DNA of 64,000 bases from Candidatus Heimdallarchaeota archaeon (GTDB lineage Archaea; Asgardarchaeota; Heimdallarchaeia; Heimdallarchaeales; Heimdallarchaeaceae): NCBI GenBank assembly GCA_019057815.1, contig JAHLWR010000003.1, forward strand, positions 69,248-133,247, read 5' to 3'. The notes under the pieces were generated by a model. That model ran no database searches and was not told where the DNA came from. It worked only from the letters and a program-made list of their open reading frames with translations. Below are positions 21,585 through 55,409 of the stretch, in pieces; position 1 is the stretch's first letter, and the number at the start of each line of letters is the position of its first letter. The translations under genes were made by a program, and so were the position numbers.

Positions 21585-21675
21585 AAATAAAACTCTTGTC
21601 GTTTAAGCTGAAAAAGAAAGAAGAAAGAAAAAGAAAGGAAGGTTAGTAATTTTTAGCGGATTTTTCAGGATTGAC
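21583..21675. repeat. Repeat R1 (copy 1 of 3). It contains a 33-bp core, a purine-rich tract, and a copy of the last 33 nt (stop included) of the MFS gene at 24302.
   Basis: aaaaataaaactcttgtcgtttaagctgaaaaa at 21583 recurs at 23024. ttagtaatttttagcggatttttcaggattgac at 21643-21675 differs at 2 positions from the 24302-24334 copy. Confidence 0.8.
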
Positions 21676-22924: not shown

Positions 22925-23023
22925 GTCTTTTTATGTCCCTTTTACTATATTGAAGTATGAAAAAGCAACAGCTGAAACAGTGGATATTACTATGAATATC
23001 ATCCCAAAGGATTCTAACATAAG
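22925..23023 (-). pseudogene. About 100-bp internal fragment of an MFS transporter gene, paralogous to the mid-region (about 24.72-24.82 kb) of the gene at 24302..25120, joined directly to the R2 repeat.
   Basis: 22953-23030 matches 24748-24810 with about 6 mismatches. The antisense ORFs 22920..23132 and 24594..24851 share KYEKATAETVDITMNIIPK only because of this duplication. Confidence 0.7.
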
Positions 23024-23083
23024 AAAAATAAAACTCTTGTCGTTTAAGCTGAAAAAAGATAACAAGAAAGAAAAAAGAGAGAG
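23024..23083. repeat. Repeat R2: the same 33-bp core plus purine-rich tract, exactly 1441 bp downstream of R1.
   Basis: Identical 33-mer aaaaataaaactcttgtcgtttaagctgaaaaa, followed by agataacaagaaagaaaaaagagagag. Confidence 0.8.
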
Positions 23084-24257: not shown

Positions 24258-24334
24258 AATAAAACTCTTAGAATCTAAAAGAAAAGAAAAAGAAAGGAGT
24301 TTTAGTAATTTTTAGCAGATTTTTCAGGCTTGAC
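24258..24334. repeat. Repeat R3: a degenerate core (aataaaactctta...) plus purine-rich tract plus the authentic 3' end of the MFS gene.
   Basis: caataaaactcttagaatctaaaagaaaagaaaaagaaaggag followed by ttagtaatttttagcagatttttcaggcttgac. Confidence 0.7.
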
Positions 24335-25120
24335 CATAATTATTACCCCGAGTCCTATGACCATCATTATTCCGATAATCAACATAGCCCAACCATATGT
24401 TTTGTAGTTCCATTTATCATAAAAGACAATGAAAGCAAGACTCCATATTATTGGGCCTACAGCTGCAGAAACTTTACCGGATAACTTGGAAAAACCAAAA
24501 TATTCGCCAAATTTTTCCTTAGGAGCTAATGCAGCAACCATAGCTCTCTGAGCAACCCATGTACCACCTAAAGCAGGTCCAGCGAGTACACCCATGAGAA
24601 TTATCATGATAAAAGGGAAATTGAAACCAGTGTCTATAGGAGCCCAAATGAAAATACCTAAGATTCCAAGAGCTAGTGCTACAAACCAAAGGATTCCAAC
24701 TAAAATGAAAGCATTCTTAGCTCCTTTTTTATCAGCAAAGACACCGATGAAATATGAAAAAGCAACAGCTGAAACGGTGGATATTACTATGAATATCATA
24801 CCAAAGGTTTCAGACATAAGAAAACCGTCGCGAATTAAAGGGAACATATAAATCACTATCACATTCGCAACATCAACAAAGAGGAAATATCCGATAATAA
24901 AGATAAACATCTCTCTATGACGAGTAATCTCTTTAAAAGTACGTCCAAGACTCTTGAAAGTATCCTTTATTAGAACACCAGCAGAAGGTCTGTCTCCTTT
25001 TTTCTGTCTTTCTTTGACAAAGATGAATTCTACCCAAAATGTTGACTTTGTAACAATGGATTTGGAAAATTTCATCAAGTTCAATTCGACTTTTAATGAA
25101 TCTTCATCGGAGGAATTCAA
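24302..25120 (-). CDS. MFS-type transporter, C-terminal six-helix half only. It is 5'-truncated, so it may be a remnant or a half-transporter.
   Basis: 272 aa. It begins in what looks like the central cytoplasmic loop (VLIKDTFKSLGRTFKEITRHREMF) followed by about six TM helices. There is no room upstream for the N-terminal half, since the HDAC gene starts at 26463 and the + strand ORF 24954..25373 overlaps. Confidence 0.5.
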   Translation of the reverse strand: MNSSDEDSLKVELNLMKFSKSIVTKSTFWVEFIFVKERQKKGDRPSAGVLIKDTFKSLGRTFKEITRHREMFIFIIGYFLFVDVANVIVIYMFPLIRDGFLMSETFGMIFIVISTVSAVAFSYFIGVFADKKGAKNAFILVGILWFVALALGILGIFIWAPIDTGFNFPFIMIILMGVLAGPALGGTWVAQRAMVAALAPKEKFGEYFGFSKLSGKVSAAVGPIIWSLAFIVFYDKWNYKTYGWAMLIIGIMMVIGLGVIIMVKPEKSAKNY

Positions 25121-29055: not shown

Positions 29056-29164
29056 ATAACTTATAACTCTGCTTCTTCTCATGTTATTAATAAAAATCCA
29101 AATTTTCATTTTAATGAGGTTGTATGCAAATATTTAAGTTATTTTTACTCATTATAGTATATAT

Positions 29165-29747
29165 AATAAATTTAGATTGTTTTAGGTGAAAAAACTATGG
29201 CTAAAATAGTTGATGTCCGTATAAACGGAAGAGGAGGGCAAGGAGCTGTGACAGCTTCTCGTCTATTAGCAGAAGCAGCTATCATAGAAGGACAATATGT
29301 TCATGCTTTCCCTAACTTCGGTCCTGAAAGGGCAGGGGCTCCAGTTACGTCATTTTCAAGAATCAGCCCTGAGCCCTTTACAGAGAAAATAGAGGTTTAT
29401 AATCCAGATATCGTGGTTGTAATAGATTCTTCTTTGTTGGGTGATGTTCAAATAGCTGAAGGTTTAAAACCTGGAGGTATAATTATTTGCAACTACGAAG
29501 GGAAATTGGAATCGCTAAAACACTATTTTGAAGGAGTAGATTCTAAAATTTATAAGATATCTGGAACAAGAATTGCTAGGGAAGAGCTGGGAATAAATAA
29601 ACCAAATATGATAATGCTAGGTGCATTGTTAAAAGTTGTTCAGATTGTTAAACTTGAAAGTCTAATCAAAGTAACTAAAGAAAGATTCAAAGGTGTAATT
29701 GGTGAAAAAAATTCTAAAGCTATGAAAAGAGCATATAATGAGGTGAC
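29165..29747. repeat. Duplicated segment, copy A, about 583 bp. It covers the gamma-subunit gene (porG) plus about 30 bp of leader. The internal ~500 bp are identical to copy B at 30295..30877.
   Basis: Direct comparison shows differences only at the edges (first ~30 bp and last ~35 bp). Spacing 1130-1131 bp. Confidence 0.85.
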
Positions 29748-30022: not shown

Positions 30023-30316
30023 ATGGTATATAAATTTCCAAGCAAAGGATGGATTGAATACTATAAGGACATTCTAAACAGTGAAAAGGGCAAACCATGG
30101 CAAAAAGCTGCTAAAGCGTGGGAAGGCGACTTTCTATTTGTTATAGAACCTGATGAAAAATTAAAGCAAGGGAACACTTTCTACATAAATCTATGGCATG
30201 GAGAATGTAGGAAAGTAGACAGCTCAGAGGATGGAAAAAAATTACCGGAATCTGAGTTTGAGTACAGAGGAATACTTACTCAAGATAGCTTAATTAATAA
30301 ATTTAGATTATTTTAG
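30023..30316 (+). CDS. Hypothetical 97-aa protein between the two gamma-subunit copies.
   Basis: ORF with no recognisable motifs (…WQKAAKAWEGDFLFVIEPDEKLKQGNTFYINLWHGECRKV…). Confidence 0.3.
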   Translation: MVYKFPSKGWIEYYKDILNSEKGKPWQKAAKAWEGDFLFVIEPDEKLKQGNTFYINLWHGECRKVDSSEDGKKLPESEFEYRGILTQDSLINKFRLF

Positions 30317-30877
30317 GTGAAAAAATTGTGGCTAGCATAGTTGATGTTCGTATAAACGGAAGAGGAGGGCAAGGAGCTGTGACAGCTTCTCGTCTATTAG
30401 CAGAAGCAGCTATCATAGAAGGACAATATGTTCATGCTTTCCCTAACTTCGGTCCTGAAAGGGCAGGGGCTCCAGTTACGTCATTTTCAAGAATCAGCCC
30501 TGAGCCCTTTACAGAGAAAATAGAGGTTTATAATCCAGATATCGTGGTTGTAATAGATTCTTCTTTGTTGGGTGATGTTCAAATAGCTGAAGGTTTAAAA
30601 CCTGGAGGTATAATTATTTGCAACTACGAAGGGAAATTGGAATCGCTAAAACACTATTTTGAAGGAGTAGATTCTAAAATTTATAAGATATCTGGAACAA
30701 GAATTGCTAGGGAAGAGCTGGGAATAAATAAACCAAATATGATAATGCTAGGTGCATTGTTAAAAGTTGTTCAGATTGTTAAACTTGAAAGTCTAATCAA
30801 AGTAACTAAAGAAAGATTCAAAGGTGTAATTGGTGAAAAAAATACTAAAGCTATTAGAAGAGCATATAATGAGGTGG
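30295..30877. repeat. Duplicated segment, copy B (operon-linked gamma-subunit copy).
   Basis: See copy A. Confidence 0.85.
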
Positions 30878-31220: not shown

Positions 31221-32407
31221 TAGAACCAATAGTTAAAGGAATGACAGGTGATGAGGCTGTTGCTTGGGCTGCAAAACAAATAAATCCAGATGTAATAGCC
31301 GCCTACCCTATCACACCCCAGACAATTATTGTTGAACGCTTTTCAGATTATGTGAATGATGGTTTAGTTGATACTTCATATATTCCAGTTGAATCAGAAC
31401 ATTCAGCAATGTCTGCATGTGTAGGTGCTTCAGCAACGGGAGCAAGAGTTTTTACTGCTACGGCTTCTGCTGGACTAGCTTTAATGTATGAAATTCTTTA
31501 TGTGGCTTCAGGTATGAGATTACCTATCGTTTTAGCTGTCGCAAACAGAGCTTTTTCAGCTCCAATTAATATACATGGAGAGTGCACAGATCAAATGGTC
31601 TGTCGCGATGCTTCATGGATTTCTCTTTTTGGTGAATCAGCACAAGAGGCATATGATGAAACTATTATGTCTTTCAAAATAGGAGAAAACCCAGAAGTAA
31701 TGCTTCCAACAATGTTTGGTATAGAAGGTTTTATTGTTACACATGCTCTTGAAAGAGTCGATACACTTCCTGACAAAACCGTTAAAGAATTTCTCGGTGA
31801 TAGAAGAGTAATACCAGCCTGTTGTACTTTTAACCCATTCGCTGTAGGAACTTTTGGTTCTTTAGTTTTACAAGATAATTACATGGAACTTAAAAGACAA
31901 CAAGAAGAAGCAATGCAAAAAGCTTATCACGTAACAAAAAATGTTATGGCAGAATTTTCCGAGATTTCAGGAAGGGATTACGAAATAATTGAAAAATATA
32001 ATCTTGAAGATGCTGACTATGCTTTTGTCTCGTATGGAGCAACAGCAGGGAATGCTAAAGCTGTAGTTGATCGTTTAAGAGAAAAAGGAGAAAAGGTTGG
32101 TTCACTAAAAATAAGACTATATCGTCCTTATCCTGTTTCTGACATCTATGAAGCTCTGAAAGGAATTAAAGCCGTATCTATTCTAGATCGTTCTGCAACT
32201 TTCGGTTCTCCAGCAACCATAGCTCAAAACGACTTGGCAGCAGCTCTTTATGGAAAGAAAGATGTTCCTACACTACATGGCTATATTAATGGTCTTGGGG
32301 GACGCGTTTTATTACTTCCTGAAATTGAACAAGTCTATGAACAGTCTAAGAAATATCATGAGGAGGGGAAAGCCTTGACTCAAGATTGGATAGGGTATAG
32401 AAGGTGA
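31217..32407 (+). CDS. porA: 2-oxoacid:ferredoxin oxidoreductase alpha subunit.
   Basis: MIEPIVKGMTGDEAVAWAA...; start overlaps the delta-subunit stop (ATGA at 31217-31220). About 397 aa. Confidence 0.8.
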   Translation: MIEPIVKGMTGDEAVAWAAKQINPDVIAAYPITPQTIIVERFSDYVNDGLVDTSYIPVESEHSAMSACVGASATGARVFTATASAGLALMYEILYVASGMRLPIVLAVANRAFSAPINIHGECTDQMVCRDASWISLFGESAQEAYDETIMSFKIGENPEVMLPTMFGIEGFIVTHALERVDTLPDKTVKEFLGDRRVIPACCTFNPFAVGTFGSLVLQDNYMELKRQQEEAMQKAYHVTKNVMAEFSEISGRDYEIIEKYNLEDADYAFVSYGATAGNAKAVVDRLREKGEKVGSLKIRLYRPYPVSDIYEALKGIKAVSILDRSATFGSPATIAQNDLAAALYGKKDVPTLHGYINGLGGRVLLLPEIEQVYEQSKKYHEEGKALTQDWIGYRR

Positions 32408-34482
32408 GGAATATGATAGAATTACAACGTGTTAACTTAAAAGAAATCTCTAAACTAGAACCTGCTCTAACAGGAGGTCATAGACTCTGCGCAGGATGTG
32501 GTGCAGGTACAATGGCAAGACAAGTAACTCTAGCTGCACAAGCTCTAAAGGAACCTTTTATGATTGTTAATGCCACAGGGTGCCTTGAAGTAGCAACAAC
32601 TATCTATCCATATAATTCATGGACCGTACCATGGTTGCATAATGCTTTTGAGAATGCAGCAGCAACAGCTTCAGGAACAATTGTAGCACTAGAAGCTCTG
32701 AGAAGAAAGAAACAACTAGAGTATGATCAAATAAATATATTAATTTTCGGAGGTGATGGGGGGACGTATGATATAGGTCTTCAGAGTCTATCAGGAGCAA
32801 TAGAAAGAGGACATGATTTTCTATATGTCTGTTATAATAATGGAGCATACATGAACTGCTTAAGTTTAGATACTTTCATTATGACTGAAGATGGTCTTAA
32901 ACGTGTAATTGAAATCCAATTGGGTGATCTTGTTTATGCTTTTGATCAGACTACAGGGGATTTGGTCTTAAAAGAATGTAGCGGTATATATGATAATGGT
33001 ACTAAAGAAGTCTATGAATTGAAAACACTACATCACTCAATAAAAACAACATTAAATCATCCATTTCTGACAGTTCAAATGAGTCGAAAGAAAGATGTGA
33101 ATGCTTTGATTTGGAAAACTCTTGAGCAATTAGAACTAGGAGATGAGATAATCGTTTTAAAGAAATTGACAGGTGGAAAGAGTTATACTTTCAAGAAAAT
33201 AGATCTCTCCGTAAGGGGAGATTTTAAAGTTCATAAAATAAATGAAATCCAACTACCAGAAAGTAGCAATCCAGAGCTAATGGAATTTCTTGGTCTGTAC
33301 ATAGGTGATGGTTGGACAAGATCTCATAAAGCTGAAACAGGATTTTCTTTTCCAGAGAAAACAGATGCGAGAGCGAGGTTAGTCTTCTTATCAAAGAAAT
33401 TATTTAATTTAGAACCTAGTACTACTAGTCTTAATGACGTATATTTATACTCTATAAATCTTGCACGGTTTATCGAATCACTTGGTTTTGGTAAAGGAGC
33501 TAAAAATAAGATTATACCATCTTGGGTCTTTACTATACCTCTTGAAGAAAAAGAAGCATTAGTTAAGGGATTAATGCAATCTGATGGATATATTGTAGGA
33601 AAAAGCAAAAGGTATGTTTCTGCTAGTTATGAATTGCTCAAAACATTAAGACTGTTATTGCAAACCATGAATTATAGAGTTGGAAAAATACATCAACAAA
33701 CAAAGAAAAAAGGAACGTTTGTAGTTTATAGAAAATTACTGGAAGATAGTAGCTACGGTTATGTCTGTTTTAGTAAAAAGAAGGAACCGAATATAGACAA
33801 ATATCTATCACAAATTAAACAGAGAAACTTCTTAGCAGAAAATAAATATTTTAGTTCAGAGAAAATTACTTCCATTGAATTCATTAAGGAAGAACCTACA
33901 ATAGATCTTAGAGTTGAAGATGAACATAATTTCATTGCAGATGGAATAGTCGTCCACAATACTGGAATCCAACGTTCTAGTGGAACCCCTATGTGTGCTT
34001 CCACAACAACCAGTCCTGCTGGAACTGTTATCCCTGGTAAGATTAAGTGGGCCAAACCTCTTCCAGATATTATGGCTGCTCATGGAATTCCAACATTTAC
34101 TGCTAGTCCCTTCTACCATCGCGATCTGATGTCCAAAGTTCAGGCTGGGTTAAACCATGAAGGTCCTGCTTTCCTTCTTGTCGATTCACCTTGCAACTTG
34201 GGTCAACGATACGAGCCTAACATTTCATTAGAAATAGCTAAACTCGCTGTTCAATCTTGTTTCTTCCCATTATACATGACATATCAAGATGAATGGGCAT
34301 TCACTAGTGAATCCTTAAGAATTGCTAATAATCCTGATAAAAAGGTTCCAGTTGAAGATTACCTTAAACTTCAAGGACGGTTCAAACATCTCTTCAAACC
34401 TGAATGGAAGGATAAGTTGGTTGAGATTCAAGAAACAATTGATAATCGTTGGGAACGATTAATAAAGAAAACAAAATACTAA
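32404..34482 (+). CDS. porB: 2-oxoacid:ferredoxin oxidoreductase beta subunit (TPP-binding) interrupted by an intein. 692-aa precursor, 324-aa extein.
   Basis: CAGCGAG...GGDGG TPP motif. Extein junction YNNGAYMN / TGIQRSSGTP matches the conserved PorB AYMNTG(N/I)QRS block. Confidence 0.85.
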   Translation: MRNMIELQRVNLKEISKLEPALTGGHRLCAGCGAGTMARQVTLAAQALKEPFMIVNATGCLEVATTIYPYNSWTVPWLHNAFENAAATASGTIVALEALRRKKQLEYDQINILIFGGDGGTYDIGLQSLSGAIERGHDFLYVCYNNGAYMNCLSLDTFIMTEDGLKRVIEIQLGDLVYAFDQTTGDLVLKECSGIYDNGTKEVYELKTLHHSIKTTLNHPFLTVQMSRKKDVNALIWKTLEQLELGDEIIVLKKLTGGKSYTFKKIDLSVRGDFKVHKINEIQLPESSNPELMEFLGLYIGDGWTRSHKAETGFSFPEKTDARARLVFLSKKLFNLEPSTTSLNDVYLYSINLARFIESLGFGKGAKNKIIPSWVFTIPLEEKEALVKGLMQSDGYIVGKSKRYVSASYELLKTLRLLLQTMNYRVGKIHQQTKKKGTFVVYRKLLEDSSYGYVCFSKKKEPNIDKYLSQIKQRNFLAENKYFSSEKITSIEFIKEEPTIDLRVEDEHNFIADGIVVHNTGIQRSSGTPMCASTTTSPAGTVIPGKIKWAKPLPDIMAAHGIPTFTASPFYHRDLMSKVQAGLNHEGPAFLLVDSPCNLGQRYEPNISLEIAKLAVQSCFFPLYMTYQDEWAFTSESLRIANNPDKKVPVEDYLKLQGRFKHLFKPEWKDKLVEIQETIDNRWERLIKKTKY
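32857..33960 (+). mobile_element. Intein in the beta subunit. 368 aa with LAGLIDADG endonuclease motifs.
   Basis: Begins with Cys (CLSLDTF) and ends VVHN followed by +1 Thr. Motifs LGLYIGDGWT and LMQSDGYIV. Codon positions verified (tgc at 32857, aat at 33958-33960). Confidence 0.8.
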
Positions 34483-45889: not shown

Positions 45890-46417
45890 ATGCCATATCC
45901 AGTAAGACTTGTAGATTACAAATCTGAATGGTCTGCTCATTTTAAGAAAGAAAAGGATTTAATTATGGATATAGTCTGTGTCAAAAACATTGTAGTTGAG
46001 CATATAGGCAGTACATCTATTCCAGGAATAAAAGCTAAATCGACGATAGATATCTTAGTAGGTGTTCAAACGTTAGAGGAAGCAATGAAAATCATTCCAG
46101 ATCTTGAAAAGATAGGATATGAGTACTTTCCTGAGTATGAAGAGCGGATTCCAGAGAGAAGATATTTGAGTAAAGGCGAAAAAGGGAAAAGATCTCATCA
46201 TCTTCACATGTTTGATATCAAGAGCGATTTATGGAAAGAACATCTTCTTTTCAGAGAATATTTAAGAAAAAATAAAGAGAAAGCAAAGGAATATGAGAAA
46301 TTAAAAGTGAATTTCGCAAAAAAGTATCACTCAAATAAGGAAGAGTATACAAGAGCTAAGGGTCCTTTTATCGAAAAAATGATTAGAGAAGCAAAATCCC
46401 AGATTCCTTCACTTTGA
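45890..46417 (+). CDS. grpB: GrpB-family (UPF0157) nucleotidyltransferase-fold protein.
   Basis: HIGSTSIPGIKAKSTIDILVGV and HHLHMF motifs. 175 aa. Confidence 0.65.
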   Translation: MPYPVRLVDYKSEWSAHFKKEKDLIMDIVCVKNIVVEHIGSTSIPGIKAKSTIDILVGVQTLEEAMKIIPDLEKIGYEYFPEYEERIPERRYLSKGEKGKRSHHLHMFDIKSDLWKEHLLFREYLRKNKEKAKEYEKLKVNFAKKYHSNKEEYTRAKGPFIEKMIREAKSQIPSL

Positions 46418-46460
46418 TCAAGATTTTCTCTACCACTAACTACTTTTTTAACTACAAGGA
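46267..46460. repeat. Direct repeat, copy 1: the authentic 3' end of grpB (last ~150 bp of CDS) plus 45 bp downstream.
   Basis: About 194 bp, roughly 94% identical to 47708..47901. Confidence 0.85.
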
Positions 46461-46959
46461 TTTAAGATACGAATTCATGATTAATTGTACATTATATGTA
46501 TTTGCTGGAACAGATATGCTAGGTATTGAAACAAGTCTTCGTTTAAAATGCTCTCATTCAAGTCGTTTTCAACCCCATTACCAACTTTATTTCTTACTTG
46601 GTATAAATCGACACAAACTGCAATATTAATGTTTTCGAATAATCTTCTTCTAGACGCACTCTGATTATATATTACACATTTCTTAAATCTTAAATGAAAT
46701 CTCATCTAATTCAGACTTGTAGACGTTTTAACATAGTCTAGATATTTATTGTGTTTAAAACAGAGAGAGCGTGTTAATAATCGAATATAACCAAAAATAA
46801 AGCATTTTCCAAATTCTATTCACCAGAGTGAACATTTTGTTGATATATATCTTACAACTATAAATTCTATAGAAATAGTTAAAATATGCATATTTTTTAA
46901 CTAAGTTTAAAAGATACTTATCCTTTTTATTATTAGATTAAATATCTAGGAGAATAAAA

Positions 46960-47367
46960 ATGATTGAACGAGTTCATGAACATATTCTTGATGAATTAAA
47001 AACTAATACTAGAACAGACACAATTTTCATCATTACTGCTATCATTCTAAATATTGTTGCAGCAAGCATTAACGCTACAATTGCAGAAGGTTCAGATCTT
47101 TCAGATACACTAATCTTTGTTATATTTATTGTGTTAGTTCTCGTGATTAATACTGCTGTATTCTTTGGTTTAAATAGAGGAAAACAGACTCGACAGAAGT
47201 TGTTAGATGGTTTGATAAGATTATATAAAGATCAAGAAGTCAGTGGATATTATGATTCATCGATTCTAAGTTCATATAACTTTAGATATATTCTCTTCAC
47301 GATAGTTGTTTTAACTACTGGAATCGCAGCTTTAGCAATCTCCATAATTCTAAAAGTTTTGGCATAG
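46960..47367 (+). CDS. Hypothetical membrane protein (3 TM helices) inside the repeat-bounded insertion.
   Basis: 135 aa with no motifs. Confidence 0.3.
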   Translation: MIERVHEHILDELKTNTRTDTIFIITAIILNIVAASINATIAEGSDLSDTLIFVIFIVLVLVINTAVFFGLNRGKQTRQKLLDGLIRLYKDQEVSGYYDSSILSSYNFRYILFTIVVLTTGIAALAISIILKVLA

Positions 47368-47415
47368 TCAAAATTCATCAGAATTCAGTACAAGTTCTAG
47401 GGAATGATATTATAA

Positions 47416-47691
47416 TTGCATCAGACGAGAGCCATGGTAGCGTTAGATTTTAACACTATGAAACCTCTTATCACTGTAAGTATTCTTGATTCAATCAACC
47501 TAATGTCCAAAAGTATCATATCTTTCACAGAAAATCTTCTGAAAGGTTTGAAACCAAATATTGAGAATATCAAGAAGCATATGGAAAGAAATTTGATATC
47601 TGTAACTAAACTTGCACAAATAATCGGTTATGATAAAGCTGAAGAATTTGCCATTAAAGCCCATGAAACTAACAAAACAATCAAGGAATAG
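47416..47691 (+). pseudogene. C-terminal ~90-aa remnant of a class II fumarate hydratase / aspartate ammonia-lyase.
   Basis: ...MKPLITVSILDSINLMSKS...LISVTKLAQIIGYDKAEEFAIKAHETNKTIKE aligns with the fumarase C-terminal block ...NVFKPV...[25 protein letters not shown]. The upstream ~370 codons are absent. Confidence 0.55.
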
Positions 47692-47707
47692 TTTCAGAAT
47701 CAGATTT

Positions 47708-47901
47708 AAAAAATAAAGAGAAAGCAAAGGAATATGAGAAGTTAAAAGTGAATTTAGCAAGAAAGTATCACTCAAATAAGGAAGAGTATACAAGAGCTAA
47801 GGGTCCTTTTATTGAAAAAATGATTAGAGAAGCAAAATCTCAGATTCCTTCACTTTGATCAAGATATTCTTTACCACTAACTACTTTTTTAACTATAAGG
47901 T
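47708..47901. repeat. Direct repeat, copy 2: a duplicated grpB 3'-end fragment, exactly 1441 bp from copy 1.
   Basis: Encodes ...KNKEKAKEYEKLKVNLARKYHSNKEEYTRAKGPFIEKMIREAKSQIPSL* without the upstream gene body. Confidence 0.85.
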
Positions 47902-48004
47902 TTTGGGACATGCTTACAAACGATATTTTCTTTTTTTCTTTTCTTTTTAATGAAATAAACAAATATATTAATGAGAATAAATAACATATTGAAGTGAATG
48001 CTAA

Positions 48005-50695
48005 TTGCTAAAGGAAACTAATAAAAGGTCAACCATAATATTGTTACTACTGCCACTTTTATTGATATCAATCTGCTTTTTCACTGTATATTCGAGTGAT
48101 ATTTCAACTTACTACCAAAATTATGATGAAATTATAACAAATTCTTTCCCTGATTATTTAACGTTTAATGAAAATGCTTCCTTTATTCACACACCAAAAT
48201 TTCAAAGAGATACAGTTATTCAAGAGTTCACTTTGGAGGATTATACTCATCTAGGTTTTTTCTCATGTGAAACAGCGTTAGGTGACAAAAATTTTCCACT
48301 GATGACAATTATATGGGCACCTAGTTCGTTTTATGAAGAGTACCTTAGTTTATCTTTGTTTGAAGGAGAAATATTTATAGGAAGTTCACTAAGAAACGAA
48401 TATTTTAATTATACAACAACGCTCTTTACTTCATTTAAACCTGCAGAAAGCTTGATTATTAATAGTTCTTTTACTCTAAAAAATTTCATACAAATAGAAG
48501 ATATCTTTATTGGGAAAATGCTTTCAAGCCTACAGAGAGACAAATTAGGAACAAATAGTAACTACATTTGTATGACAGATGATACTTTTAACACTATTTT
48601 TAGTGAACATATAAACAATTTCGGTTTTTATAATATTTTTATGTTTAAATTCGATAGAGAAACAATTTATTCTCTTCCAATTGATCAAATCAAGAAATTT
48701 CTTGACACTAATGAGAGAAATATCAATTCTTACTTTGAATACCAAGCAGATAATGATTTGATTTTTATTCAGTTTTCCTTAAAAGGGGAATTAGAAAGGT
48801 TTGATGAGCGATACAGTGGAGTAAAAATATTCCAAATGTTAATTATTTATTTAGTTGTTACCTTTTTAGCTACAATCTCATTGGCATTTACGGTAGAATC
48901 ATATATCACTAACCAAAGAACTACAATTAATTTATTCAGATTGAGAGGAGGAAAAAGGTATGATATTTTTAAGAAGTATTTTAATATAGAATTAAAATTA
49001 ATAATTCTAACAAGTCTTATAGTATATATCTTCTCGATAGGGTATATTGCTATTGTGGCTCCAGCTTTCTTACATTTTAATACAAACTTCTTTAAGCTTG
49101 CAGGATCAGTACTTTCATTTGTTATCCTCTGTGGAAGCATTCAAATATCTATGCTAGTAAGATACATTTCACAAATAAGGACTGTAGAATACAGTTCTAC
49201 TGTCCTAATGCAAAAAATGAAGAATATCATAAAAGATTTATTATTTTCGCTCATTCCAACATTGTTTTGCGTTCTTTTATACTTCATCCTATTTGCGATG
49301 CTATTGGGTAATGAAGTTTTTGTGAATTACTGGATATTAGGACTCTTTTACGTTGCAGTGTTGATGTTAAGTTTTATTATTACAAGAAACAGGATTTTAA
49401 GAGTGGGTACGCTAATATTTTCAGCGTTTTCCAAGTTATATAATCTCTTTTCTTACACAAAAGAATTTTCACAAAAAGTATTATTAAAGAGATTAAAAAT
49501 GTCTAAATTATTAATAGTATACATTATAATTCTGTCTCTATTTTTCTCAATGTTTGATTCCTTTAATTCCTACGAAACTAGAAATGAAGTCTATAATGAA
49601 GTTGGTGACTTGACCATTGTGTACCCAAAATCAAGCAGTTATCAGGTGCAACAAACCCTAGCTCAATATATTGATTTATCAATCGAATTTTCTCATTTTC
49701 GAATTCATAAACAATACATAGATGCTGAAAATTCATTAAGAAATATAAATATTGATAGTTACATTTTAAATCATAGTAAGATTAATGATTTGTTTGAATG
49801 TGAGAAGTTCAAGAAATCTTATGCTGGTCTAGAAGATCTTGAAATTATTAAATCAAAGTTCCATAATAGTAATGCAACTATAGTTTCTGAAACTTTATCT
49901 TCTGAATTGCAAAAGGAGATAGGAAATACTCTTATTCTTAAAATAGCAACACATAGTACTTACAGAGCAGAGATAATAGATATTGTCGAGATTCTACCTG
50001 TTTTTTCATGGATAAGTATGAACTATTTTTTCCCAAGTGCAGTTTCAAACTACATATTATTAAATAATGAATTTACAGAAAACATTTCTGAATTAGAAAT
50101 TAGTGAGACTTGGACAATCCTTTTTACAAATAATTCATGTGACCGTAATCAACTAATAGAGATAATAAACAACTTAAACAATGATCTACACTTGGGTATC
50201 TCAATCATAGATTTTGGGGAGACAAATCTAATAGATGAAAATTATGCGGGAATTATGATAAATTCAACACAAATAGTAATTATAATAGTAATTCTGAGTG
50301 TTGCACTTAGTTTTTTCACATTAGAATATTGTAGACAAATGTTTAGTGAACAACTTAATGGTTTTAGAGTATTTTTTGCTAGAGGAGTTCCAATAAGAAA
50401 AGGTTTATTCCTCGCTTTAGTGCCATTACTCTTGTTTATTTATTATATCACCGTAATAGGAAATATTTTCGGTTGGTTGTTAACTTTTATAATCTCAAGC
50501 GAAATGCAACCGTTTGATTATTTAAAAGTACGATTATCGATTTTTCCTTATTCATTATTGTTCCTTGTCGCACAATTATCTTTATTATCAATTATAACTT
50601 GCATAACAGGATATCTTAGTTATAAGAAACTTAAATCAAGATTACCAGAAATCATTTCAACAGATAACCTAACGATTAAATTAGAGGAGAGTTAA
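48005..50695 (+). CDS. Large FtsX/MacB-like ABC transporter permease with big extracytoplasmic domains, TTG start.
   Basis: 896 aa, clusters of TM helices separated by large NxS/T-rich loops. Followed by a paralog and an ABC ATPase. Confidence 0.45.
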   Translation: MLKETNKRSTIILLLLPLLLISICFFTVYSSDISTYYQNYDEIITNSFPDYLTFNENASFIHTPKFQRDTVIQEFTLEDYTHLGFFSCETALGDKNFPLMTIIWAPSSFYEEYLSLSLFEGEIFIGSSLRNEYFNYTTTLFTSFKPAESLIINSSFTLKNFIQIEDIFIGKMLSSLQRDKLGTNSNYICMTDDTFNTIFSEHINNFGFYNIFMFKFDRETIYSLPIDQIKKFLDTNERNINSYFEYQADNDLIFIQFSLKGELERFDERYSGVKIFQMLIIYLVVTFLATISLAFTVESYITNQRTTINLFRLRGGKRYDIFKKYFNIELKLIILTSLIVYIFSIGYIAIVAPAFLHFNTNFFKLAGSVLSFVILCGSIQISMLVRYISQIRTVEYSSTVLMQKMKNIIKDLLFSLIPTLFCVLLYFILFAMLLGNEVFVNYWILGLFYVAVLMLSFIITRNRILRVGTLIFSAFSKLYNLFSYTKEFSQKVLLKRLKMSKLLIVYIIILSLFFSMFDSFNSYETRNEVYNEVGDLTIVYPKSSSYQVQQTLAQYIDLSIEFSHFRIHKQYIDAENSLRNINIDSYILNHSKINDLFECEKFKKSYAGLEDLEIIKSKFHNSNATIVSETLSSELQKEIGNTLILKIATHSTYRAEIIDIVEILPVFSWISMNYFFPSAVSNYILLNNEFTENISELEISETWTILFTNNSCDRNQLIEIINNLNNDLHLGISIIDFGETNLIDENYAGIMINSTQIVIIIVILSVALSFFTLEYCRQMFSEQLNGFRVFFARGVPIRKGLFLALVPLLLFIYYITVIGNIFGWLLTFIISSEMQPFDYLKVRLSIFPYSLLFLVAQLSLLSIITCITGYLSYKKLKSRLPEIISTDNLTIKLEES

Positions 50696-53347
50696 GTGAA
50701 AATAACTTATTTACTTTCAAAAGGTCAGAGAAAATTACTTGTAATAGAGTTTATAATTATTTTCTCTTTATTTATTGGTACTTCTTTCCTTTTTTGCACA
50801 TATTTATCAGAATATCATAAAGAATATTCAAATCTTGTAACAGCAAATAACGACCCAGATTATGAAGTACAAGCAGATCAAAGGTTTTCGTCATATTTGT
50901 TATCTCATAGTTCTTTCGTTGGTCAATTTGGAGGTTATAAATACCAATCAATAGTTAATATCCCCAAGAGTTTAGTAAATGTCCAAGTTAAAAACAATAG
51001 TTTCGATAAATATAATCTTATATTAATTAATTCGGAGATTAATGAAGCTGTGAATGCTGATTTACATGACAATGAAATCATGATACTTTTACGTAATTCT
51101 GATGAAATACAAGTTTCAGATATTTCTATCAATTGGAATTTTTATGTAGAAAACGAGAGTCTATCGGTTATCAACATTGTAAATGAGACATTCTTTAAAC
51201 CTGCTTTTTCTTCAATGAACAATTTGCTGGTTAACCATGCTTTGCAAAATTTTAACATAATTATTTATGAAACATTTTTCTTTAAAATTGCCCAAAAAGT
51301 AAGTTATAACACTTTGTTGAATATTGCAGCCTTAAATACTACTTCTCTTTTCTCTTTCTTTCGGTGGAACAAAACAGAGTATCTCAACTCTTTACCAAAA
51401 CGAGTACAAGAAGCACATGACATATGGACAAATACTATAAGGAATGGTTTTTTACAATTTTATGGTTTCTTTGATGCAGTCAGCGGACCTTACGCTCAGA
51501 TCGATTTTAACGATATTTTCGCAGATAAAGTATCGAAACTTACTCAAAAAATGAATGCTGTTTTTATAAGCACATCTATTATAGCATTGATTATTTCTTC
51601 AATTTTCCTTTTTACAACATATAATTTTCTCAAACAAAGTCAAACAGATTTAAGGCGTGTTTTAAAGAGTTTCAGCGAGAAAGGTGCTAGTTATTCAACT
51701 CTAAGTAGGAGGATAATTTTCCTGCACATTCTTGTTTCGCTGTTCTGTTTGATTTTTTCTCTCTGTGTATCCTTTTCATTCTTATTTATCAATAAAATTA
51801 ATAGATGGTCTTACTCAAACTTACTTATAATAATAGTTCATTTAATAGTTATATTTCTCATAAGCTTCTTTCAATTTAGACTAAACTCAGCTGTTCAATT
51901 GAAGGAAACCTTGAGAGAGAAGAGGAAAAGAACATCATATTCAAAATCGGAAATAATAAGCGTTATTATTCAATCTTCAGCAATATTAGTAATCGTTCTG
52001 ACTATAACTGTCTTTTGGACGATAAACAAGACAACTCTTGGATCCGGAGGACTGACTACAGGAGCAATTTGGTTAATTTCATTAGGTATTCTTAGTTTTA
52101 CTACTCTTCTACTTTTCACTCCTAGAATATTACCACTTGCAGTAAAAAGAGTAGTAAATAAACTTCTATCCCTTTTTACAGATCTATATTCATTTATCAC
52201 CAGACTTTTTACATCAATTTACAGAAGTAAAAAACAAGCTTGGTTACTCAGCTTCTACTTACTCTTTTTTACTTCGTTTCTAACATTAAGTTATTCAACA
52301 CTTCAAAACCATCAAGAACAATTATATTTATCAGCAAAATTGGGAGATGCAACAGTAATTATTGATTCAGACGCTGTTTCAGATGTAATCAAGATAGGTG
52401 GAAAAGAGAATTGCGTGGTCTCTTATTTAGACACTGTGAGTACGGTAAAAGGTGTGTTCTATATGTTATATCTTAATAATCCATTGAAATTTTATGAAAA
52501 TGCTTTTTTTGCAACTGAATGTTTTCAAGAGATGGAAAATTATGAGGTTTTTAATCTTTTGAATAGCTCATCTGACTATTTTATAACTTCTAGTCTCATT
52601 GCAAACGCATTTTATTATTCCATAGGGGACAATGTTTCAATTCCAAGAACTTCTCATGATTTTAGCATCAATTATGAAAATAAAATTCTCTTAGACATAG
52701 CAAAATATTTACCGTTTTATTTTCCAACAGGTGATATAAATTGGTATGTGATGAAACAAGATATATTAAAAACAAATGATACCCATTATCAATTCGCATA
52801 TATTAGTATTAAGAAAGATAACAATAATATTGAAGATTTAATCTTTTTCTTGGATGAACAAAAAATATGGTACTCGATAAATGAATATGACGAAAATGTG
52901 TTATCAATTGAAAATACAAATGAAAGTTTTGTAGAAGGATTAAAACTTCCAGTTATTTTCATAAACATAACTATCCCAGCAATTCTAGCATTAATTCTGT
53001 TAGATATTCAAAAAACAAGCAAGGAACAATTTTCATATCTCAATCTGAGAGGTTTAAAAAAATCTGTTTCTGTTTTTGCAATTTCTAACTGGTTTTCAAT
53101 CCATATGTTACTAACTATTATTTTAACCATGTTAATTTCGATTCTTGGTCTTCAAATTATTCTGTTTATAAGAAATTCTTCTTATGGTTTACCCGTAACA
53201 CTGAATATTTCTAGTGTTTTTTTTGTAACACCGCTTATTCTTATAATTGTTACATTAGTAGTACCCTATTCCTCATCTTTACTTCTGAGGATTATGGGAC
53301 AAAAACAATCTTCCAAATTCATAATCAAAGGTGATAATAATGAGTAA
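50696..53347 (+). CDS. Second FtsX/MacB-like permease paralog, GTG start.
   Basis: 883 aa with the same architecture. Abuts the previous gene and overlaps the ATPase gene by 17 nt. Confidence 0.45.
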   Translation: MKITYLLSKGQRKLLVIEFIIIFSLFIGTSFLFCTYLSEYHKEYSNLVTANNDPDYEVQADQRFSSYLLSHSSFVGQFGGYKYQSIVNIPKSLVNVQVKNNSFDKYNLILINSEINEAVNADLHDNEIMILLRNSDEIQVSDISINWNFYVENESLSVINIVNETFFKPAFSSMNNLLVNHALQNFNIIIYETFFFKIAQKVSYNTLLNIAALNTTSLFSFFRWNKTEYLNSLPKRVQEAHDIWTNTIRNGFLQFYGFFDAVSGPYAQIDFNDIFADKVSKLTQKMNAVFISTSIIALIISSIFLFTTYNFLKQSQTDLRRVLKSFSEKGASYSTLSRRIIFLHILVSLFCLIFSLCVSFSFLFINKINRWSYSNLLIIIVHLIVIFLISFFQFRLNSAVQLKETLREKRKRTSYSKSEIISVIIQSSAILVIVLTITVFWTINKTTLGSGGLTTGAIWLISLGILSFTTLLLFTPRILPLAVKRVVNKLLSLFTDLYSFITRLFTSIYRSKKQAWLLSFYLLFFTSFLTLSYSTLQNHQEQLYLSAKLGDATVIIDSDAVSDVIKIGGKENCVVSYLDTVSTVKGVFYMLYLNNPLKFYENAFFATECFQEMENYEVFNLLNSSSDYFITSSLIANAFYYSIGDNVSIPRTSHDFSINYENKILLDIAKYLPFYFPTGDINWYVMKQDILKTNDTHYQFAYISIKKDNNNIEDLIFFLDEQKIWYSINEYDENVLSIENTNESFVEGLKLPVIFINITIPAILALILLDIQKTSKEQFSYLNLRGLKKSVSVFAISNWFSIHMLLTIILTMLISILGLQIILFIRNSSYGLPVTLNISSVFFVTPLILIIVTLVVPYSSSLLLRIMGQKQSSKFIIKGDNNE

Positions 53348-54026
53348 AAATACCCAACCAATCGTTCAAATAGTAGATTTAGTGCAAATTTATAAAGGAA
53401 AAGTCGAGACAATAGCTCTCCCTGGGATTAATCTAAAAATAAATCGGGGTGAGAGAGTTGTAATAAGAGGAAAATCTGGAATTGGAAAAACAACTTTACT
53501 TCATTGTTTAGCAGGAATTCTTAAACCATCAGCTGGAAAGATAATCATTGAAAATAGAAATATTGTAGACTTTAACGAGGATCAACTAGCAGATTATAGG
53601 TGTACAACTGTTGGGTTAATTTATCAATCATACAATCTTGCTCCATTTTTAACAGTCGAAGAAAATATTGAATTTCCCATGGTTATAGCGAAAATTAGAA
53701 GAGAAAAACGAAAGGACAGGATTCTTGAGCTTGTTGACTTGCTTGAAATTGAAAGATATCTTAATCAAAAACCCCCTTATCTGAGTGGAGGAGAACAACA
53801 AAGAGTCGCTATTGCAGTTGCTTTAGCTAATAAACCTGCTATCATACTAGCGGATGAACCTACAGGGAATTTAGATACAGAAACTTCTGATCAAGTATAC
53901 AAGCTGCTTTCAAATATGTGTATAGCTCATAATACTACATTAGTCATGGCTTCACATGATCCTGAAGCCAAAAGTTATGCTGATCGCGAGATTGTACTTT
54001 CTAAATTAAAGTCACATGACTTATAA
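53331..54026 (+). CDS. ABC transporter ATP-binding protein (LolD/MacB-type).
   Basis: Walker A GKSGIGKTT, signature LSGGEQQRVAIA, Walker B ILADEPTGNLD. 231 aa. Confidence 0.85.
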   Translation: MIIMSKNTQPIVQIVDLVQIYKGKVETIALPGINLKINRGERVVIRGKSGIGKTTLLHCLAGILKPSAGKIIIENRNIVDFNEDQLADYRCTTVGLIYQSYNLAPFLTVEENIEFPMVIAKIRREKRKDRILELVDLLEIERYLNQKPPYLSGGEQQRVAIAVALANKPAIILADEPTGNLDTETSDQVYKLLSNMCIAHNTTLVMASHDPEAKSYADREIVLSKLKSHDL

Positions 54027-54104
54027 TTCTCAAGAATCCCAACAGTTATTGCTGGTTGAAGATCACCTATCTATGATTTAAATTCAATAATTTTTCGAGT
54101 GACA

Positions 54105-55409
54105 TTAAGAAACTTTTGGAGTTTTAATCTTCTTTCCTTCTCCTCTCAATAAAAGATTAATGATAAACATAGTAGCTCCAACAATTACGAAAAGTAAAGG
54201 AATTGAATAATCTCCAAGTAAACCAAATAATGGTGCAAAGATAAGCACTAATATTGATTTTATCTGCGACTCTACGCTTAACATAGTTACTCTCTGTTCC
54301 TTTTTCATAGTTTCTCCTAGATAGTCGACACACAACGGTCTCCTAATGTTTTGCAAAATGTATATTATTAAATAGAGAATGGTGACTACTATAGGAATTT
54401 CAATATAAACGAATAACGCGTTCAAAAGCAGTAATGCACCAAATATGTAGAAAATAATATCCATTCCTTTTTTAGCTGATTTGAAATAATTTTTTACTAG
54501 ATAAGCGTTCCTAGAAGAAAATGATGAAAGTAGATAGAAAAGTGTGTACAGTAAGCCCAAAATGATTGAAATAATGTCCTCTTCTGAGATATTTAGACTA
54601 CTTAAACCTAAATGCAATATCATCGCTGCAATTAATATTTGAATAATGGGTTGAATGTAGTCTTTCAATGTTCTGAAAATAGCATCATAAGTCGCAGAAG
54701 AAAAAAGTCCTTTAACTAATCTTCTATTCTTCAAAGCTGCAAATATATCCTTAAAACCACTTGCCATTTCTTTCCAGCTAGATTGAGTGTGGGGAACATG
54801 TTCATTCATGTAGGACGGATAAGTGGTGATGAGAATAAAATCGAGGATATAAGGAATAATTGTAATTAAGAATAACCAATTGCTAGCAGGAGCAAAGATT
54901 ATTATAAAGATTGCTAAAATACCTGAAAGAGCAGAACCTAATAACGACCAAGATCTTGTTCTACCATATACAAAGGTTTTGTGATCTTGATAATTGTTTT
55001 TATCCATCCAGAGCAAGATCATAGCTTTATGAGTACCAGAGCGAAAAGCTTCACCCAAACCAAAAAAAACAGAAGCGAAAATTAAAACAGTCCAATTGGG
55101 TCCAGAACCAAAGAAGAAGAAAACAAAGGAAGAGATATAAAAAACAAAACAAACTAGGAGTTCGTTCTTTTTACCATATTTGTCTGCAATGATGCCTGAA
55201 GGTACTTCGAAGACATAGGTGATTATTTCTCGGATTAAAACCAATAACCCTATTTGAAAAAGATTTAACCCCCAAGCTAAAAGAATAATCAACAAGTAAG
55301 GTTCAAAGAATCGAAGATTCTTAAAAAAACCATAAAGCTGGAATTTTTTCATAATAGGAGCTTTAAGTATCTCAGTTTGAAGCGCATCGTACTTGGGAAC
55401 ATCGGGCAT
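54105..55409 (-). CDS. MFS transporter, full length with 12 predicted helices.
   Basis: 434 aa, hydrophobicity pattern, GxxxDKYGKK loop motif. Confidence 0.6.
   Translation of the reverse strand: MPDVPKYDALQTEILKAPIMKKFQLYGFFKNLRFFEPYLLIILLAWGLNLFQIGLLVLIREIITYVFEVPSGIIADKYGKKNELLVCFVFYISSFVFFFFGSGPNWTVLIFASVFFGLGEAFRSGTHKAMILLWMDKNNYQDHKTFVYGRTRSWSLLGSALSGILAIFIIIFAPASNWLFLITIIPYILDFILITTYPSYMNEHVPHTQSSWKEMASGFKDIFAALKNRRLVKGLFSSATYDAIFRTLKDYIQPIIQILIAAMILHLGLSSLNISEEDIISIILGLLYTLFYLLSSFSSRNAYLVKNYFKSAKKGMDIIFYIFGALLLLNALFVYIEIPIVVTILYLIIYILQNIRRPLCVDYLGETMKKEQRVTMLSVESQIKSILVLIFAPLFGLLGDYSIPLLFVIVGATMFIINLLLRGEGKKIKTPKVS

Follow-up and report, generated by a model that had tools for sequence, protein, structure and literature searches.

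A duplicated grpB 3' end in a Heimdallarchaeota genome: probable scar of illegitimate recombination around an eroding orf135-fumC segment

The integrative elements e14 and phage 21, both residing in icd of Escherichia coli, are examples of elements that occupy the 3' end of a protein-coding or tRNA gene and carry a replacement for it. A comparable arrangement is found at grpB in a 64,000-nucleotide stretch of a Candidatus Heimdallarchaeota archaeon genome (contig JAHLWR010000003.1, positions 69,248 to 133,247; hereafter the window), where the gene 3' end is likewise duplicated as direct repeats around other DNA and the target gene is likewise intact. The locus differs from the e14/phage 21 type in having no integrase and no element-like cargo, in that the cargo has a chromosomal home elsewhere, and in that one boundary falls inside another gene. 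We consider it, with a probability of about 0.6, to be a scar of illegitimate recombination, probably a replicative template-switch insertion with duplication of the target, followed by pseudogene decay and involving no mobile element. The process closest to this description is microhomology-mediated break-induced replication with fork stalling and template switching (MMBIR/FoSTeS), a model developed for amplification in E. coli, for yeast and for human copy-number variants (Hastings et al., 2009, PMC2621351), which predicts microhomology at the junctions and, where the switch goes back to a point behind the break, a duplication (the latter in Table 2 of PMC2621351). The grpB locus shares with it a microhomology junction (J2, 5-12 nt), DNA apparently copied from another locus and a duplication behind the presumed return point, giving an 'A-X-A' arrangement in one complex event. 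It differs in its setting, an Asgard archaeon, and in that the process itself would be deduced from anatomy, with one of the two junctions examinable. The features of the locus are as follows.

45890-46417, plus strand: grpB, an intact open reading frame (ORF) of 175 codons whose product contains a full-length Pfam GrpB domain (PF04229, E 3e-49, profile positions 1-158 of 159).
46267-46463, plus strand: repeat copy A, comprising grpB from codon 127 to codon 175 with its stop codon and a further 46 nt that include an oligo-T run; its right end is junction J3.
46464-46959, minus strand: decayed 5' part of a divergent gene of 150-175 aa (orf74, 46481-46705), with the intergenic region upstream of orf135.
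46960-47367, plus strand: orf135, intact, encoding a conserved 135-aa protein with three hydrophobic stretches, 1144 homologues and no Pfam family.
47368-47390, plus strand: native 3' flank of orf135, ending at deletion junction J1 (window TCAAAATTCATCAGAATTCAGTACAAG, matching the flank GCTAATTCATAAGAATTCAGTAAAGC of the related contig L016).
47391-47719, plus strand: fumC remnant, a pseudogene in which codons 341 to ~450 (out of ~460) are left, with two frameshifts.
47708-47719, plus strand: J2, a microhomology common to fumC and grpB (AAAAATAAAGAG, encoding K-N-K-E).
47708-47904, plus strand: repeat copy B, a displaced and non-functional duplicate of the stretch given for copy A (grpB from codon 127 to 46 nt past the stop codon).
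47905-54104, plus strand: right flank with putative ABC transporter genes encoding 896 aa, 883 aa and a 231-aa ATPase.

The two copies of the repeat are 197 nt long, 95% identical and offset by 1441 nt (repeat search), with identity dropping off on both sides of the repeat limits in a pairwise alignment. Since just one longer direct repeat occurs in the whole 64-kb window, the pair is not a chance resemblance. The geometry described in the sequence-only reading (a gene end, intervening DNA and a duplicated gene end) is thus confirmed, and the identities that it assigned to grpB, to the 135-aa membrane ORF and to the C-terminal fumarase remnant are correct. Metagenomic contigs with 89-100% DNA identity cover the grpB locus, and the GrpB orthologues encoded in related contigs are 85-97% identical to that of the window. 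The nearest named GrpB record ('Candidatus Heimdallarchaeota archaeon 8H_bin2') has 94% identity. An exact-match look-up with the window GrpB returned no match.

Two independent assemblies reproduce the structure. A Logan contig (L009) is 100% identical to the window over 46342-47737 and spans both novel junctions, J3 and J2. An ENA contig from a different sample (L001) extends in one piece from grpB with copy A, through orf135 and the fumC remnant, to copy B and the beginning of the ABC region. The A-segment-B structure is therefore no assembly artefact.

The DNA between the repeats consists of three parts. On the left, orf74 (74 aa, minus strand; no Pfam match; '...LYQVRNKVGNGVENDLNES') aligns with a 175-aa protein of the related contig L012 ('...LKQLRNKVDNGVDSGLNET'), and window positions 46554-46742 and 46864-46959 match L012, L014, L016 and L020 at 77-86% (blastn). 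The ORF orf74 is a decayed gene start, not a gene. In the centre, orf135 has more than 1100 homologues that include sequences from Chloroflexota and Dehalococcoidia, forming a conserved family without assigned function. On the right, the ORF at 47416-47691 (91 aa) matches the Pfam family FumaraseC_C (E 1.6e-7; 32.1 bits, just below the cut-off of 32.5), and in a codon-level alignment with L016, L012 and L001 the two frameshifts of the fumC remnant, relative to L001, stem from the loss of 2 nt between 47442 and 47443 and of 1 nt from an A-run at 47687-47688. The remnant is the orthologue of the 3' end of fumC as it stands intact in the sdhA-sdhB-fumC operon of L012 and L016, with 80% amino acid identity to the 462-aa FumC of L012 over residues 359-440 (tblastn). 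Tested as a class II fumarase, it lacks the Lyase_1 catalytic domain, codons 1-340 are gone and the frame is broken; it is a pseudogene.

Searches with the fumarase fragment itself say little of its provenance: a word-indexed search matched only the fragment and the L001 fusion ORF described below, and an exhaustive search of representatives returned only generic class II fumarases at 37-49% identity, uninformative on origin. Its origin is known from the neighbours of orf135 homologues. In related Heimdallarchaeota the native order is TFIIB (minus), a 150-175-aa gene (minus), orf135 (plus), sdhA, sdhB, fumC (plus) and a CCA-adding enzyme gene (minus), preserved to the following extent (percentages give orf135 identity to the window).

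L012 (84%): 150-175-aa gene (minus), orf135 (plus), sdhA, sdhB and fumC (plus), with TFIIB upstream and the CCA-adding enzyme gene downstream.
L016 (82%): 137-aa gene (minus), orf135 (plus), sdhA, sdhB and fumC (plus), then the contig end.
L020 (86%): 150-175-aa gene (minus), orf135 (plus) and sdhA, then the contig end.
L014 and L015 (70%): flanks as in L012, with sdhA, sdhB and fumC missing.

No grpB sequence adjoins the locus in L012, L014/L015, L016 or L020. When L012 proteins are compared with the window (tblastn), the only matches are orf135 (84%) and FumC residues 335-440; sdhA, sdhB and the L012 flank genes (TFIIB, the CCA-adding enzyme, Band_7 and others) have no match in the 64 kb. 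Window positions 46554-47719 are collinear with the related loci, with the operon deleted (blastn), and from the identities to the L012 counterparts (80% for the fumC remnant, 84% for orf135) the two genes have diverged together. The inter-repeat DNA is thus a truncated part of a chromosomal locus that relatives conserve, with both of its ends inside genes, and a relocated part, because the native locus of the relatives lies in a different neighbourhood (TFIIB to the CCA-adding enzyme). Several earlier proposals change accordingly. The fumarase fragment, for which the sequence-only reading weighed foreign DNA or the remnant of a paralogue, is the leftover of an operon natively beside orf135 that decayed in place, and the insertion of 1.25 kb is the residue of a segment originally of about 4.8-5 kb. 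Simple in-place decay, which that reading would have accepted had relatives carried an intact fumarase at this position, holds in part: fumC decayed within its native operon, but the intact operon sits elsewhere and not between grpB copies.

An independent loss of sdhA-sdhB-fumC downstream of orf135 is seen in L014 (10409-10620) and L015, so that the operon has been lost at least two times in the group. The L014 deletion lies between 8-nt repeats GGTTATGA (in the sdhA start region and at fumC codon ~416), and what remains in L014 and L015 is the last ~30 fumC codons with an internal stop.

Three junctions define the locus in the window. At J1 the native orf135 3' flank extends to ~47389 (matching the L016 flank AATTCATAAGAATTCAGTAAAG) and fumC resumes at codon 341 (QVLGND) from 47391, a deletion of ~3.57 kb that removed sdhA, sdhB and fumC codons 1-340. 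J2 joins fumC to grpB. Homology of fumC to L016 and L014 reaches 47719 (blastn) while the grpB repeat begins at 47708, placing the junction inside AAAAA(T/C)AAAGA(G), a sequence that both parents contain and that encodes K-N-K-E/D. The native FumC of L016 ends ...SESDLKNKDELLKSLES before its stop codon and GrpB reads ...REYLRKNKEKAKEY; given at greater detail, the parental ends are ...IVSESDLKNKDELLKSLES (stop) for L016 FumC and ...REYLRKNKEKAKEYEKL for GrpB, and the window reads ...SESDL-KNKEKAKEYEKL. Because K-N-K-E/D is encoded in the same frame by both genes, the fumC-grpB fusion is in frame: in L001 it forms an open ORF of 133 aa (P0106) with both a FumaraseC_C match (40.8 bits) and a GrpB match, and in the window it is frameshifted.

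J3 lies between 46463 and 46464. The strains of the L001 type, which carry a deletion between TAACTA repeats, keep CC(C/A)(T/C)TAACTA past 46442, and from this the sequence up to at least 46452 is indicated to be ancestral. A junction at 46442 in L003 was considered as the original left junction and rejected given the same retained CC(C/A)(T/C)TAACTA; it sits within ATTT(T)CT(C/G)CTA, an imperfect repeat, as a secondary deletion would.

The following course of events would account for this anatomy. The starting point would be the TFIIB to CCA-adding enzyme gene order that relatives still display. In the ancestor of the strain cluster, as anatomy and parsimony suggest, a segment of ~5 kb (4.8-5 kb), reaching from inside the 150-175-aa gene to fumC codon ~450, would have entered the grpB 3' region, with the last 197 bp of the target doubled, so that copy A keeps grpB intact and the copy B stub runs on into the original downstream ABC DNA. 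The right junction lies in the fumC/grpB microhomology, the reading frame being kept by happenstance. The most likely mechanism would be MMBIR/FoSTeS-type template switching during replication, in which a nascent 3' end departs from grpB 46 nt past the stop codon, copies the orf135-fumC locus and then switches back to grpB 197 nt behind its point of departure, duplicating that stretch. Erosion followed through the 3.57-kb deletion, fumC frameshifts with neutral evolution, and multiple independent microhomology-type deletions in the remnant of the 150-175-aa gene and the flanks. Parsimony favours insertion with target duplication, since it needs two illegitimate junctions (J3 and J2) and leaves a native continuation after copy B.

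Several points weigh against this account. No empty site, in which the ABC genes come straight after grpB, was found: the uninterrupted grpB downstream region that the sequence-only reading proposed to seek in related genomes was looked for and is absent among the recovered grpB contigs, every one of which already has orf135 downstream, and the scans with GrpB returned one 2.1-kb Heimdallarchaeota contig among genome contigs and one 1.2-kb contig among metagenomes, neither of them an empty site. The microhomology at J2 is identical at 9 of 12 nt in the fumC of both L016 and L014, of which a run of 5-6 A is certainly common, so that its length in the true donor may lie anywhere from 5 to 12 nt. 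At J3, positions 46464-46537 are without a clear donor counterpart for a microhomology comparison: their alignments to L012 and L016 are not significant (257 and 153 of 500 shuffles, respectively, equalled or beat the score), and among three targets tested a weak match emerged to a distal stretch of the L014 gene, its score reached in 1 of 500 shuffles. Template switching is deduced from junction anatomy, and other routes would give the same structure. The donor may have been copied or moved; the window holds no second copy of the segment within its 64 kb.

Among competing explanations, a tandem duplication followed by deletion survives best, although we regard it as unlikely. It supposes that the segment already lay downstream of grpB, that microhomology joined fumC codon ~450 to grpB codon 127, and that nearly all of the second copy was later deleted except for its first 197 bp. 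J2 does resemble a typical tandem-duplication junction, and the locus is deletion-prone, with at least six different deletions among the strains. Against this, some four illegitimate junctions and three events would be needed where insertion needs two junctions, the segment would still have had to arrive beside grpB from its TFIIB to CCA-adding enzyme context, and a second orf135 or a longer copy B is present in no strain.

Far less probable is a decayed integrative element whose attachment site was a replacement 3' end for grpB, its integration producing attL and attR, even though the inserted DNA does lie between direct repeats of a gene 3' end and the target gene is intact. The content, both present and reconstructed, is that of ordinary chromosomal housekeeping genes whose synteny is conserved in four other lineages, where no grpB tail adjoins them, and the right 'att' boundary is not an element end but a microhomology within the fumC coding sequence. 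No integrase, recombinase or transposase Pfam domain was found in the ORFs between the repeats, no tRNA gene in the window and no inverted repeat at the ends of 46464-47707. The element class targeting gene 3' ends that had been suggested in the sequence-only reading is accordingly not borne out, the inserted DNA corresponding to a conserved chromosomal locus (L012, L016, L020) with no recombinase, terminal inverted repeats or tRNA. A transposon or insertion sequence would be expected to leave a target duplication of 2-15 bp, compared with 197 bp here, and neither a transposase domain nor terminal inverted repeats are present. The remaining alternative, a chimeric contig assembled or binned from strain variants, can be set aside as having almost no likelihood: several variants of the locus do co-occur in related samples and L009 ends inside both repeat copies, as is typical for assembly breaks at repeats, but L009 independently contains J3 and J2 at 100% identity, L001 (another sample and assembler) holds both copies and the segment in one contig, and copies A and B differ at ~5% of positions.

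Selection acts differently on the two genes of the segment. In the fumC remnant the window differs from L001 by 2 synonymous and 10 nonsynonymous changes, with a ratio of nonsynonymous to synonymous substitution rates (dN/dS, omega) of 1.34, and the same codons in the intact genes of L012 and L016 give an omega of 0.06. The fumC remnant, and with it the fusion frame, therefore evolves neutrally. For orf135 dN/dS is 0.13-0.56, from which it is predicted to be functional, the only part of the segment that is still under purifying selection.

Divergence also bears on timing. The grpB tails A and B differ by ~5%, and copy B of L001 is orthologous to that of the window, the two having in common a B-specific derived substitution (TTCTTTACCA), so that the event would precede the split between the window and L001. 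The synonymous distance (dS) of orf135 from the window is 0.07-0.08 to L001 and L003, 0.25 to L020 and 0.38 to L012. Together these values point to a single event that took place once the L020-type lineage had split off, shortly before the strains themselves separated. L020 was considered as a same-genome donor paralogue and rejected, its orf135 dS of 0.25 being far above the ~5% divergence of the grpB tails.

The locus has continued to erode. Strains carry at least six different microhomology-type deletions, and four different deletions or replacements are found among them within 46464-46959. The rearrangements are these.

46405-46846 lost: L005-L007 and L011, with the GrpB C-terminus altered.
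46443-46896 lost: L001, L008, L018 and L019, between TAACTA repeats.
Internal replacement or deletion: the window.
Junction at 46442: L003, a secondary junction.
About 47583-54087 lost: L006, cutting the fumC remnant, with copy B and the ABC genes gone.
About 47382-54095 lost: L003, between ATCAGAAnTTCAG repeats.

RecA-independent microhomology-mediated deletion with pseudogene decay, a process of prokaryotes (reviewed in PMC2621351, section 6), fits J1 and the deletions of L014 (GGTTATGA), the L001 type (TAACTA) and L003 (ATCAGAAnTTCAG); there is no difference in kind, and the locus provides a well-sampled example from a natural Asgard population. As L006 retains the first part of the fumC remnant, a state like that of the window is ancestral to it. 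In L005-L007 and L011 the deletion begins 13 nt ahead of the grpB stop codon, giving a new GrpB end (...REARTQISYNNKF; 176-178 aa in all) that apparently leaves the Pfam domain unharmed.

On the right, the block of three ABC genes would be the original downstream neighbour of grpB. Its 231-aa product matches Pfam ABC_tran (E 6e-33) and the 896-aa product has a weak FtsX match. The block is missing in L003 and L006 through differing deletions, both of which end within ~30 nt of the stop codon of a convergent MFS gene (54105-55409). The history of grpB itself may be short in this lineage: identity among GrpB homologues drops from 85% within the same strain cluster to at most 47% at the next step, mostly in Chloroflexota-type sequences, whereas orf135 homologues form a graded series (99, 93, 86, 84, 82, 73 and 70%), a gap which suggests that grpB was acquired recently.

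Elsewhere in the window a second A-X-A arrangement is formed by a gap-free 601-nt direct repeat (29145-29745 and 30276-30876, 97.5% identical) that covers 52 nt upstream and codons 1-183 of a POR gamma-subunit gene, porG, with 98% identity between the proteins. The copies bracket 530 nt of unique DNA with a 97-aa ORF lacking a Pfam match, and copy 2 heads a porG-D-A-B operon. The putative POR beta subunit (TPP_enzyme_C; 32404-34482, plus strand, 692 aa) harbours an intein (Intein_splicing, E 5e-14) that includes a homing-endonuclease domain of the LAGLIDADG kind (LAGLIDADG_3, E 9e-7). The MFS locus, to which the same architecture as at grpB had been ascribed, instead consists of two short collinear MFS fragments separated by another gene: 21617-21675 and 22951-23027 pair with 24278-24334 and 24748-24824 (59 nt at 88% and 77 nt at 92%). 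They derive from an MFS/ATG22-like gene at 24302-25120 (minus strand), lie collinear downstream of it and are parted by a gene for a 292-aa zinc-ribbon protein; they look like a decayed second MFS copy.

In kind the finding is ordinary: a segment inserted through microhomology, with a long duplication of the target, then pseudogene erosion. That the lineage is unusually prone to a specific process making A-X-A structures (0.2-0.6-kb duplications of a gene or gene end), for which the porG repeat is a second candidate, is quite improbable; if it were true, A-X-A structures arising from lineage-typical replication restart or template switching would be a natural record of Asgard repair reshaping genomes and creating in-frame fusions. 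In annotation, the label of pseudogene fragment suits both the fumarase stub and the second grpB end, and the insertion is no new mobile element. For an Asgard archaeon the locus offers a clean, population-sampled case of rearrangement driven by microhomology and of rapidly eroding pseudogenes, and the loss of sdhA-sdhB-fumC at least two times bears on reconstructions of central carbon and fumarate metabolism in Heimdallarchaeota.

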